From positions 1 through 40,230 of IMG/VR virus record IMGVR_UViG_2563366875_000002: 40,230 bases of DNA. One strand, written 5' to 3'. This document shows, piece after piece, positions 2,850 to 6,109 of the stretch. Within the stretch, counting starts at the first letter, position 1. Each line of letters starts with the position of its first letter. A program made the translations under genes and the position numbers. Below the pieces are notes generated by a model. The model saw only the letters and a list, made by a program, of their open reading frames with translations. It searched no databases and was not told the origin of the DNA. Source of the DNA: a virus. Lineage: Duplodnaviria > Heunggongvirae > Uroviricota > Caudoviricetes.

Positions 2850-3154
2850 TATTTCACCTCTTGCTGTGACATTGTTGAGAAATGGATACCAGCTCGTTGC
2901 TGCCAGACGATCCAACCGAGAGTCATATCCCATGCCATGTATTCGTTATCGCCGTTTTTTGCTCTCCGACGATCTACTAAGTCACCAAAACGCTTTTCCA
3001 TGAATAATTCATAAGCTTCGCGTTCATCTGGTTCTACTTCCAGAGATAGGAGTGCGATTTCATAAGCACGGCGCTCAATATCGTCTCGCACGTCAAGGCT
3101 GCTGATACGCTCTTTAATTTCTTTAATCAGTTCTTTGTCGGTAAAAGTGGTCAT
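2849..3154 (-). CDS. hypothetical phage early protein
   Basis: 101 aa ORF in the leftward operon, stop/start coupled to neighbours; no recognised motif. Confidence 0.5.
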   Translation of the reverse strand: MTTFTDKELIKEIKERISSLDVRDDIERRAYEIALLSLEVEPDEREAYELFMEKRFGDLVDRRRAKNGDNEYMAWDMTLGWIVWQQRAGIHFSTMSQQEVK

Positions 3155-3516: not shown

Positions 3517-4043
3517 TTGCGTAACTCCGATAATTCGTTAAAGCGTTCCATAAACATCCCGTAGGCATGGCCTGGAGCCAGTGGAATCACGTTGAACATC
3601 TCTGTTGCCGGGATACCTTCCAGCACAGGCCAGAAAGAGCCATCATCAAGCCCGAGATCGCGGCGTTCGGTTGCCAGCATAATGAGATCGGCATATTTCA
3701 CTGGCGTGCTCATAACAGGAGGTAACCCGTATTTCTCACGGATTACGGCGTCTATTTTTTCTTCCATCCGTTTATAGTCAGGAAGAAGTCGTTTCAGTGG
3801 TGCGGGGATGTCCTGGCAATATGCTTCTGTTGCATCATGCATTAAAGCTTCAAAAGCAAATTCCTGCGGCACCAGCTGGCTGCAAAGCACCGCATGTTGG
3901 GCGACACTGTAGAAGTGTGAAAGATGTCCTGCAAAGCGACAGATATTTGAAAGGGAAACCGCGATATCGTTAATAACGATGTCGTCTTTATTTATCCTGT
4001 CATAATAAAAATGCTTCCCGGAAAAAGTTTTAATAAATGACAT
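3507..4043 (-). CDS. HD-domain metal-dependent phosphohydrolase
   Basis: H...HD signature (VAQHAV ... LMHDATEA); start taken at internal ATG 4041-4043 preceded by GGAG (gtggagaacaaaATG) rather than the ORF-track start at 4070. Confidence 0.75.
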   Translation of the reverse strand: MSFIKTFSGKHFYYDRINKDDIVINDIAVSLSNICRFAGHLSHFYSVAQHAVLCSQLVPQEFAFEALMHDATEAYCQDIPAPLKRLLPDYKRMEEKIDAVIREKYGLPPVMSTPVKYADLIMLATERRDLGLDDGSFWPVLEGIPATEMFNVIPLAPGHAYGMFMERFNELSELRKCA

Positions 4044-4140
4044 TTTGTTCTCCACGTATATGCGCTGCACCGCGCTGAATTCGGGTAAAAGGAAGCCCTC
4101 ACCGTCCGGCGATTATTGAGTCAATTACATTTCCATAAAT

Positions 4141-4380
4141 GCCCCCGTAGGGGCGGTTAGTTTCTCCACAAAACAGAGAAGAACACCTGCGGTGGCAGCC
4201 GCCCGGATGGATTGGGTTATGAGCCCGTCGTCCGGTGATGCTCTTCTCTGTTTTGTAAAAAGGACGGTACCAGCCGGAAGCAAGGGTACAAACTGGTACC
4301 GCCAGGACTACACACAGCATAAAGTTGTGGTGCCGGGTGCCTCCCGGTGCCTGGCGAAGGTTGCACACCAGGCGGGTGTG
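4141..4380. other. GC-rich, highly structured non-coding segment (candidate structured RNA or cis-regulatory element); strand unknown
   Basis: hairpin 4141-4154; 15 bp perfect inverted repeat 4168-4182/4242-4256; 8 bp inverted repeat 4266-4273/4293-4300; hairpins 4333-4347 and 4364-4380; only overlapping, low-complexity ORFs in all frames. Confidence 0.35.
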
Positions 4381-4587
4381 TATCCACAGAAGGTCGACTG
4401 TCAGCCTCAACCTTAACCCGCGTGCGCTGAGCCGCATTCACCACAACGCTAAGGATTCTCTCTGGTTGAAAATACTTAGCTGTTATGTGCCTGCTTTTAG
4501 CCACATCAGGCGAGGTGGACCTAGTTATTCCCCAACAACAAGGATTCGGTTAATCTGGTTATCCCCAACAACGCAAAAGGAAAAGAA

Positions 4588-5022
4588 ATGTCCGGTAATA
4601 TCTATACGCTGTACAAATCCCACTGTGAAAATGTTGGAAAGTATCGGGGCATTGAAATCAGTGGGGTAGTGTCATCAGTCGAAATAAGCAAAGTTGAATC
4701 AAGGGCAACATTACTTACTCTTTTGGACCTTGTCTTACATGAGCACCGGAAGAAATTCGGCACTCCCTATAATCAATTGAATGGGAAAAAGGCTCTGGTT
4801 CACCTTATTCTGATGAAGCATCACTGGATGCCAAAACAGATTAATGAGATGAAATTTGATGAACTTCTTCTTTCAATTCAGGATGAACTCACACTTGATA
4901 AAATAAGCGTAACCGCCCAGAAATTTTTAGATTATCGAGACTGGAGATCACAAATTCATCACTTTGATGATTTTGACGAAAATGAATGGGATCCTAATTT
5001 GTCTGCACAATATCTAAAGTAA
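4588..5022 (+). CDS. hypothetical protein (moron-like, antisense to the leftward early operon)
   Basis: 144 aa ORF with RBS aaaaggaaaag before ATG 4588; AT-rich relative to upstream GC-rich segment; no recognised domain. Confidence 0.6.
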   Translation: MSGNIYTLYKSHCENVGKYRGIEISGVVSSVEISKVESRATLLTLLDLVLHEHRKKFGTPYNQLNGKKALVHLILMKHHWMPKQINEMKFDELLLSIQDELTLDKISVTAQKFLDYRDWRSQIHHFDDFDENEWDPNLSAQYLK

Positions 5023-5200
5023 CATCCTGTGATAAAACCGTGATTTCCTGATCCAGTTTTTTTAAGGAGTCTATTGTTTCCTGTCGATAAGACAGCACTT
5101 CACGAAGCTGGTTTATAGCTGCCAGCTTCTTTGTCATCCACTCATAAATTTCCTCATCTGTGTAGCCAGGCGCGACGATTTTGGGTTCTGTTTTGTGCAT
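4994..5200 (-). CDS. small hypothetical protein (68 aa)
   Basis: internal ATG (MHKTEPK...) preceded by GAGGAG at 7 nt spacing; overlaps 3' end of the plus-strand 4588..5022 gene; uncertain. Confidence 0.3.
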   Translation of the reverse strand: MHKTEPKIVAPGYTDEEIYEWMTKKLAAINQLREVLSYRQETIDSLKKLDQEITVLSQDVTLDIVQTN

Positions 5201-5259
5201 TTCACATCTCCTCAAGTTATCAGTTACTTGTTGATGGGGACCAGATTGTTAAAGAGCTA

Positions 5260-5286
5260 AGCGTCCTGTAGGGCGCTTTTTTGTTG
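5260..5286 (+). terminator. putative rho-independent terminator
   Basis: 7 bp stem AGCGTCC/GGGCGCT with TGTA loop followed by TTTTTTGTTG. Confidence 0.45.
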
Positions 5287-5399
5287 CTAACGAATCATCC
5301 TGGACTTCATATGCCCCAGGCGGCTACTTCGTGGGCGTCCTGCCTGTTCGTTGTTTCGCTTGGGTACATTATGTATCTCAAAGGTACATTGTCAAGTAT

Positions 5400-5420
5400 A
5401 AAAAAACCTGCCGAAGCAGG
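5400..5420 (-). terminator. putative rho-independent terminator downstream of the repressor gene
   Basis: hairpin CCTGC-CGAA-GCAGG followed on the minus strand by a T7 run (A-run 5400-5406 on plus). Confidence 0.5.
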
Positions 5421-5434
5421 TTCATAAACATTGA

Positions 5435-6109
5435 TTAGGCTTTGATTTTGTATCTTCTTGGTTTTCCTGAGAAAATCACTGTACCAATTATAGAGCAATT
5501 ACCGTTGATCTTAATGTAAGGCTCAGGCCAGTTTGGGTTTAACGCTTTGAGATAACGCTGTGTCCCATCTTCTATCAACCTTTTGAAGGTGGTTTCGCCT
5601 GTATCGTGCATCAATGCAATAACGTCGTCACCGTGGCAGGCAGGTACTTCAGGATCGACAAAAATCATGTCTCCCGGGCGGTACTCATCAATCATTGAAT
5701 CACCTATCACCCGCAAGATATAAGTCATTTCCCCACAGGGTACAGGGCAGGGATACGTTTCTGCTGTGCTCAAATCAACCTCAGAATATCCAACTTCTTT
5801 CCATGCTCCGGCCTGTACCCATGATATGACAGGGACTAATGTGATTTGTTTATTAGTGATTGAAACATCAGGTTTTTTTGTGATGTTCGTTGTCTGGTGT
5901 TCTTGATCGAGCCATCCGACAGGCAGGTCGAAACATTTTTCGATGTGTCGTGCCATGCTGTCACCGATATTTTTAGTAGCACCATCTCCCATAAACCTGC
6001 TGGTCTGGGTTGGCTCGCGATCAATCATAGTGGCAAAGGAAGAATTCCCGCCAACACCATCTCTCAGTTTTCTGGCGTTAGACCGCCGGATGTCATGGAT
6101 TGTTTTCAT
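5435..6109 (-). CDS. cI-like phage repressor (HTH domain plus LexA/S24-type autocleavage domain)
   Basis: 224 aa; N-terminal HTH region; C-terminal peptidase S24-like region with GDSM serine motif and downstream lysine; divergent from a cro-like gene across palindromic operators. Confidence 0.88.
   Translation of the reverse strand: MKTIHDIRRSNARKLRDGVGGNSSFATMIDREPTQTSRFMGDGATKNIGDSMARHIEKCFDLPVGWLDQEHQTTNITKKPDVSITNKQITLVPVISWVQAGAWKEVGYSEVDLSTAETYPCPVPCGEMTYILRVIGDSMIDEYRPGDMIFVDPEVPACHGDDVIALMHDTGETTFKRLIEDGTQRYLKALNPNWPEPYIKINGNCSIIGTVIFSGKPRRYKIKA

Follow-up and report, generated by a model that had tools for sequence, protein, structure and literature searches.

A convergent two-gene accessory cassette in a swappable cargo slot downstream of the PL-like promoter of an SfIV/SfV-like prophage

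Two genes that converge and overlap at their 3' ends, one of 144 aa transcribed rightwards and one of 68 aa transcribed leftwards, form an accessory cassette that occupies a swappable slot just downstream of the PL-like promoter of an SfIV/SfV-like prophage, and both the conserved upstream element and the plus-strand intrinsic terminator come from the slot itself. The prophage is integrated at thrW within a window of 40,230 nucleotides (the whole stretch of DNA analysed here). The stretch tested (4000-5450) matches Shigella phage SfIV at 98% identity, and the prophage is also closely related to SfV, SfII and several induced E. coli phages. A preliminary description of this region implied a lone gene and overlooked the partner at 5200-4994 on the minus strand; because this convergent partner is conserved and the terminator is shared, the lone gene becomes a two-gene, switch-like cassette. 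We are highly confident of the anatomy of the locus, the features of which are as follows.

1-1254: proA
1369-1441: tRNA-Thr, with the minus-strand integrase gene next to it
4487-4587, plus strand: conserved upstream element, GTGCCTG..CCACATCAGGCGAGGTGG followed by the duplicated 5'-UTR segment
4525-4539 and 4559-4572, plus strand: the duplicated 5'-UTR segment, TTATTCCCCAACAAC and TTATCCCCAACAAC respectively, followed by AAGGA
4528-4533 and 4551-4556, plus strand: best promoter candidate, TTCCCC and TAATCT separated by 17 nt
4577-4581, plus strand: ribosome-binding site AAGGA of the 144-aa gene, 6 nt ahead of the ATG
4588-5022, plus strand: 144-aa ECs1072-family gene (SfIVp36), ATG start
5104-5129, plus strand: hairpin within the partner gene followed by TTTGTC, 82 nt past the stop codon of the 144-aa gene
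5200-4994, minus strand: partner gene of 68 aa (MHKTEPKIVAPGYTDEEIYEWM...), phrog_1744, the first gene downstream of PL
5213-5208, minus strand: ribosome-binding site GAGGAG of the partner gene
5259-5286, plus strand: intrinsic terminator for rightward transcripts, with a stem at 5259-5278 (8 bp, loop TGTA) followed by TTTTTTGTTG up to 5286
5395-5368, minus strand: PL-like promoter TTGACA-16-CATAAT, directly after the cI terminator
5423-5404, minus strand: cI terminator, which ends the repressor transcript
5435-6109, minus strand: repressor gene cI (Peptidase_S24)

The 144-aa gene and its family

The 144-aa protein matches the NCBIfam model NF033230 ("ECs1072 family phage-associated protein") with 157.8 bits (E=1.7e-46), well above the curated cutoff of 70 bits over the full model, and the alignment pairs residues 4-144 with model positions 2-142 of 142. 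It is likewise a full-length member of phrog_5286, a family of unknown function (E=1.5e-90, residues 1-144 against model positions 1-144). The Sakai protein that gave the family its name is a distant member (hhalign probability 96.9%, 22% identity). A profile search covering 1.8 billion representatives returned 76 clusters at 50% identity, nearly all of 145-155 aa and single-domain, with the start methionine conserved, and relatives are present in prophages of Shigella, Salmonella, Klebsiella, Yersinia, Serratia, Citrobacter, Erwinia and Pectobacterium. Of 5426 complete E. coli genomes, 408 (~7.5%) contain the gene along with the stretch next to it, and 41 distinct E. coli alleles from IMG/VR prophages differ by 21 synonymous and only 3 non-synonymous changes.

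These family matches, the number of clusters, the ratio of changes and a confidently predicted fold (pLDDT 93.4) identify 4588-5022 as a real gene under purifying selection, and both the plus-strand gene and the decent ribosome-binding site ascribed to it beforehand are borne out. A chance ORF or a decaying pseudogene, to which the weak candidate promoter and the lack of an assigned function might point, is effectively refuted by the same evidence together with the conserved length and start.

The family is thus already annotated, as uncharacterised. Literature searches with ECs1072, the WP accessions and the PHROG identifier found no functional paper and a single microarray table, in which ECs1072 is among the genes with a significant growth-phase change of expression in the Sakai lysogen (PMC2241611); the gene on that array is the 22%-identical homologue in another context, and the array signal is unassigned to strand. 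No earlier description appears to exist of the conserved pair set out below, of its rule of orientation in three operon contexts or of the slot as a cassette.

A few database members (such as P0004 and P0008) are chimeras or truncations. One joins the N-terminal 110 residues to a tail-fibre-assembly C-terminus (PF02413), and another is 126 aa long and labelled "outer membrane pore protein"; these probably reflect rearrangement or mis-annotation.

A conserved convergent partner

The partner gene occupies the 237 nt between the stop codon of the 144-aa gene and the terminator, and the two genes share 29 nt at their 3' ends. The alleles of the partner differ by 10 synonymous and 14 non-synonymous changes. 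The plus-strand hairpin that lies within it (-15.6 kcal/mol, z=-3.6) could act as a partial terminator or as a stabiliser of a rightward mRNA.

Among 13 lineages in which the large gene was sampled, a convergent, 3'-overlapping pair is present in 11, namely Escherichia (two), Yersinia (two), Pectobacterium, Erwinia, Klebsiella, the IMG/VR locus L141, Serratia, Citrobacter and Salmonella, with overlaps of ~30-320 nt. Searches in both directions recover it. Starting from the large gene, a related small ORF is found on the opposite strand in Serratia, Yersinia (two), Pectobacterium, Erwinia, Klebsiella, one IMG/VR phage and Sakai Sp4; when the search begins with the partner, a convergent, overlapping member of the ECs1072 family turns up in Klebsiella, Erwinia, Citrobacter and Salmonella, four of the five lineages, and in Arsenophonus the partner stands alone. 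Conversely, two lineages (L133 and L135) have the large gene and no partner. The partners share an N-terminal motif, EP(K/Y)I.A...(T/S/N).EEL..W(M/L), followed by a helix, and the phrog_1744 partner is related to that of Serratia (BLASTP E=2e-5).

The pair occurs in three genomic contexts: beside cI and PL, in Sakai Sp4 with a cII-like gene on one side and O on the other, and in the interval from the Q antiterminator gene to the holin gene. The same rule of orientation holds in all three, with the partner promoter-proximal and transcribed along the lytic operon, and the large gene directed against it. The Sp4 partner is an unannotated plus-strand ORF (44167-44676 in NC_002695, our locus L137) carrying the partner motif as SPHIWRGGLSDVELAEWL; it lies between the cII-like ECs_1071 and O (ECs_1073), and overlaps the opposite-strand ECs_5703 (the former ECs1072) by ~300 nt.

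The late-region copies in Citrobacter (L145) and Salmonella (L147) have in addition a GC-rich hairpin and T-run ~45 nt upstream of the partner start, on the partner's own strand and directly after a Q-type antiterminator gene. This looks like a tR'-type terminator and, if it is one, the partner would be made only after Q has acted.

A swappable cargo slot with a shared terminator

The preliminary description noted a plus-strand hairpin and T-run, which are indeed present at 5259-5286, and took them to be the terminator of the 144-aa gene itself. An independent plus-strand unit does end there, but the terminator is common to other cargo genes and so belongs to the slot rather than being private to this gene. 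The sequence around it is found in 1052 of the 5426 E. coli genomes, compared with the 408 that contain the 144-aa gene. On the minus strand the structure is weaker, with a plus-strand G.U pair becoming a C.A mismatch and no U-run, and we therefore expect rightward transcripts to be halted and those from PL to pass.

Sister prophages with near-identical flanks share the upstream element and the terminator but have unrelated plus-strand genes between them, and it is this exchange that marks the region as a swappable cargo slot. The alternative cargo genes are as follows.

Plus strand: phrog_1244, a 163-171-aa coiled-coil protein with two CxxC pairs
Plus strand: phrog_3983, a 167-aa acidic protein

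They are carried by strain 190 and by IMG/VR relatives, at L004 2480-2995 and at IMG/VR loci such as L012 and L042, and neither has a match in Pfam or PADLOC; for the pair and the alternative cargo together, Pfam, PADLOC, NCBIfam and PHROGs yield only families of "unknown function". Cargo types B and C have no partner gene. SfV lacks the terminator and keeps the upstream element, and has a fourth cargo (L002, U82619), an unannotated 81-aa ORF at 2907-3152 on the plus strand that follows the promoter-like element and has an AAGGA ribosome-binding site. This ORF converges on orf33 (3366-3070, minus strand) with an 83-nt overlap, and is thus a second, unrelated convergent pair in the slot.

The GC content is 35-42% in the 144-aa gene compared with 46-57% in the left flank. 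The locus has a terminator, and its cargo is present or absent between conserved flanks and differs from them in base composition, as is characteristic of morons. With at least three other uncharacterised cargo genes, the slot is a ready place to seek more genes of this sort.

Predicted promoters facing the pair

The PL-like promoter scores 13.3, and is flanked and overlapped by operator-like GGTACAT repeats at 5363-5369 and 5383-5389; the same GGTACA motifs are present in the cI/cro intergenic region. From its sequence and position, this promoter is predicted to drive the partner gene and then antisense transcription through the 144-aa gene. The preliminary description was thus right that the 144-aa gene opposes the leftward operon, but placed it in a gap between the repressor terminator and that operon; the gene lies inside the operon, antisense to it.

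Promoter scoring of the window reveals no evident strong sigma-70 promoter upstream of the 144-aa gene, and the best candidate scores 6.4, compared with 13.3 for PL. Across the lineages the best candidate is nevertheless at the same place, ~55-62 nt before the start and within GTGCCTG..TTCnCCACCTCAGGCGGCGGTGGTATCTT. In six other lineages, including the Serratia late-region copy, the element reads TTCnCC-16/17-TGGTATCTT and has an extended -10 (at ~-60); in the E. coli and Klebsiella versions the extended -10 has degenerated and the 5'-UTR segment occurs twice, and it is this duplication that gives rise to the two TTATyCCCCAACAAC repeats. The same upstream element precedes cargo types B, C and D. 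Independent rightward transcription of the 144-aa gene is therefore plausible from these sequence features.

The direct repeats at 4525-4572 were also considered as a cargo-specific, aba-like immunity element. They are common to three unrelated cargo genes and resemble a 5'-UTR duplication, and this interpretation was rejected.

Properties of the 144-aa protein

The AlphaFold model of the 144-aa protein is all-helical. The protein is predicted to be soluble (pI 6.4, GRAVY -0.47) and mildly acidic, with an acidic C-terminal segment, and sequence analysis identifies neither a hydrophobic segment nor a signal peptide. The net charge is only ~-2, which argues that it is not a DNA mimic.

Sensitive profile and structure searches matched uncharacterised families and found no fold relative. 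Pfam contains no match at E<=0.1, including the SieB domain PF14163; PADLOC-DB v2, which includes RexAB and the Abi families, has no component matching either protein of the pair at E<=1; a sequence-profile search of the PDB gave no match to the 144-aa protein at E<=10; and a fold search with the model found no relative in the PDB or BFVD (the best Foldseek hit in BFVD has E ~1). The protein is unrelated to SieB and RexAB, and neither a HEPN motif nor a domain pointing to a host target was found in it. The pair does not have the character of a type II toxin–antitoxin system, as the genes are convergent rather than co-directional and match no toxin or antitoxin family. With no matches in PADLOC, Pfam, the PDB or BFVD, a link to defence through the protein itself is absent. 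Across Pfam, PHROGs, PADLOC, NCBIfam, PDB and fold searches there is equally no homology to a conserved early phage function, the outcome that the preliminary description named as counting against its reading.

The sole invariant histidine and the near-invariant arginine of the family are not retained in the distant Sakai member, and for this reason the 144-aa protein is more likely to act by binding than by catalysis.

Comparison with known systems

The kind of system represented here is known, as a moron or as a prophage defence gene with an antisense off-switch, and it is the proteins that are new. Lambdoid morons, as described by Juhala et al. 2000 and by Hendrix and colleagues, are extra genes located between conserved neighbours and equipped with their own terminator. 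The cassette resembles them in its variable presence among close relatives, lower GC content and terminator, but differs in that the upstream element and terminator are shared, making the slot a conserved expression cassette in its own right, and in that the cargo is a convergent gene pair.

The neighbourhood, from cI to the early-left genes, is that of sieB in lambda and P22 and of rexAB in lambda. Of these, SieB resides in the membrane, and RexAB combines two proteins, a sensor and a channel. Unlike SieB, the 144-aa protein is hydrophilic, with no hydrophobic segment and no Pfam SieB match. The suggestion that this is a position for exclusion genes is upheld by a Yersinia locus (L128) in which a SieB-family gene (PF14163; 5806-6321) lies directly between the pair and cI, on the same strand, and by the other cargo in sister phages; the sister Yersinia loci L129 and L130 lack the SieB-family gene.

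The closest parallel in design is with Tha and Ith of the Staphylococcus aureus phages 80alpha and phiNM2, in which a small overlapping antisense gene (~67 aa) encodes an inhibitor of the large protein, and this inhibition spares the induced prophage from self-inhibition or autoimmunity (Rostol et al. 2024, PMC11087260). Both are accessory genes at the boundary of lysogeny and early functions with a small overlapping antisense gene, conserved here in 11 lineages. There are several differences. Tha, a HEPN RNase, is larger and its gene is expressed with the cI operon, whereas the protein here is of 144 aa and shows neither a HEPN motif nor any detectable relative, and its gene is opposed to both cI and PL and has a candidate promoter and a terminator; the partner lies behind the main lytic promoter, whereas the Ith side has a private constitutive promoter. 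The activity of Tha and Ith is experimentally established, and that of the present pair is a proposal from sequence.

The gene for BstA in Salmonella phage BTP1 likewise follows cI and ends at a Rho-independent terminator of its own; lysogens express it, and a dedicated element, aba, confers self-immunity (bioRxiv 10.1101/2020.07.13.199331). The two systems have in common a gene near cI with a terminator, and an established or, here, a candidate self-immunity element. However, aba is a 63-bp DNA element and the candidate here is a protein-coding gene, and BstA and the 144-aa protein have no sequence similarity.

A possible role and its alternatives

By analogy with these systems, our preferred reading, held with a little less than even confidence, is that the 144-aa protein is a prophage-expressed cytoplasmic anti-phage effector that is silenced at induction by lytic read-through and by the partner protein. 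In the lysogen, PL would be repressed and the 144-aa gene transcribed rightwards from its own weak candidate promoter to the terminator, and the resulting mRNA, being antisense to the entire partner gene, would keep the partner silent. Upon induction or infection, active PL (or PR or PR' in the other contexts) would make the partner first, and lytic transcription would then run head-on and antisense through the 144-aa gene, shutting it down, while the partner protein may also neutralise the 144-aa protein already made. The 144-aa protein would be a soluble cytoplasmic effector or sensor acting against superinfecting phages, by exclusion or abortive infection, and the partner would be the phage's own off-switch against self-inhibition. 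The SieB gene adjacent to the pair in Yersinia, the positional conservation of the promoter-like element and the greater strength of the terminator on the plus strand count in favour, as, weakly, does the growth-phase change of ECs1072 expression in the Sakai lysogen; the weakness of the candidate promoter, the absence of the partner in L133 and L135 and from cargo types B and C, and its solitary presence in Arsenophonus count against. The defence role specifically is more doubtful than the reading as a whole, and we consider it possible though rather unlikely that the ECs1072-family protein, with a new all-helical fold, and its partner make up a prophage immunity module that is widespread in enterobacteria but has so far gone unrecognised, wired convergently to PL, PR or PR'.

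The roles could instead be exchanged. The partner would then be the effector, a lytic-cycle protein (for example, for host take-over or inhibition of division) that is harmful if it leaks from PL, and the 144-aa gene and its antisense mRNA would be the lysogen-phase antidote, in an arrangement resembling an addiction or toxin–antitoxin system. The partner is always promoter-proximal in the lytic operon, the rightward mRNA would span its whole gene in antisense, and Arsenophonus has the partner alone, all of which are as this would predict. Against this, the 144-aa gene (21 synonymous and 3 non-synonymous changes) is under far stronger constraint than the partner (10 and 14), the large gene is found with no partner in two lineages, near-identical phages lack the partner entirely, and the convergent layout is atypical of protein toxin–antitoxin pairs. 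We judge a reversal to be improbable. A somewhat smaller likelihood attaches to a lysogenic-conversion gene that serves host physiology (fitness, stress or virulence) and merely happens to be overlapped by an unrelated early gene. Its moron-like anatomy and low GC content, its wide distribution in E. coli and Shigella (the 408 of 5426 complete genomes) and the growth-phase change of ECs1072 expression in Sakai would fit, but the protein has no signal peptide and no domain for a host target, and in three contexts the two genes stay closely associated and keep the same relative orientation, which argues for a joint function.

A role in the lytic cycle or in counter-defence, with expression upon infection rather than from the prophage, in the manner of Ocr and the Ard proteins, seems very improbable: a small, soluble, mildly acidic protein with an acidic C-terminal segment, encoded in the early region, would suit such a role, but wherever it was found the gene runs opposite to the early-left, early-right or late operon, its terminator faces PL, and a net charge of ~-2 does not make a DNA mimic.

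If the preferred reading of a defence gene with its self-inhibitor is correct, then the principle of the overlapping antisense off-switch would extend from staphylococcal to enterobacterial lambdoid phages, and a new protein fold would join those of defence proteins. Whatever the role, this is a widespread family with no assigned function, and the conserved convergent pair offers a concrete and cheap experiment.

The PL leader and other non-coding sequences

The segment transcribed directly after PL (5288-5342, minus strand) contains a leader, GCGAACAGGCAGGACGCCCACGAAGTAGCCGCCnGGGGCATAnGAA..CCGGGATGATTCGC, that is kept in diverged phages of Yersinia, Klebsiella and Pectobacterium. RNAalifold predicts a closed multi-stem structure with compensatory changes in two pairs, based on five sequences only. 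Put-like RNA antiterminators are known from HK022. Because the SfIV paper looked for cII, cIII and N and appears to report all three as absent, the PL leader could be a put-like antiterminator by analogy.

Just past the slot-terminator hairpin on the PL transcript there is an exact GCTCTTTAACAA (5246-5257, minus strand), which we take to be an rrn-type boxA core. This is its single occurrence in the window, where shuffled sequences average 0.18 matches with one mismatch allowed, and the window was searched for a second boxA (a nutR-like site) and has none. A Klebsiella prophage (L142) has the same 12-mer at the equivalent site, and Arsenophonus (L149) has it upstream of the partner.

At the gathering threshold, an Rfam scan of the window has the tRNA as its sole match. 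The svsR/co293 sRNA paper was dropped as a lead since it concerns another phage (NC-SV at icd). Further along the PL operon there is a ~380-nt non-coding block (~4155-4530) that is nearly identical in SfV, SfIV and strain 190 and has ~80% identity in Salmonella ST64B; PGAP annotates it as a frameshifted hypothetical protein. Within it, 4255-4477 on the minus strand matches Rfam STnc100 just under threshold (43.1 bits compared with a gathering score of 47, E=1.2e-7), and STnc100 has been tied to the prophage PasD sRNA family in a 2026 preprint.
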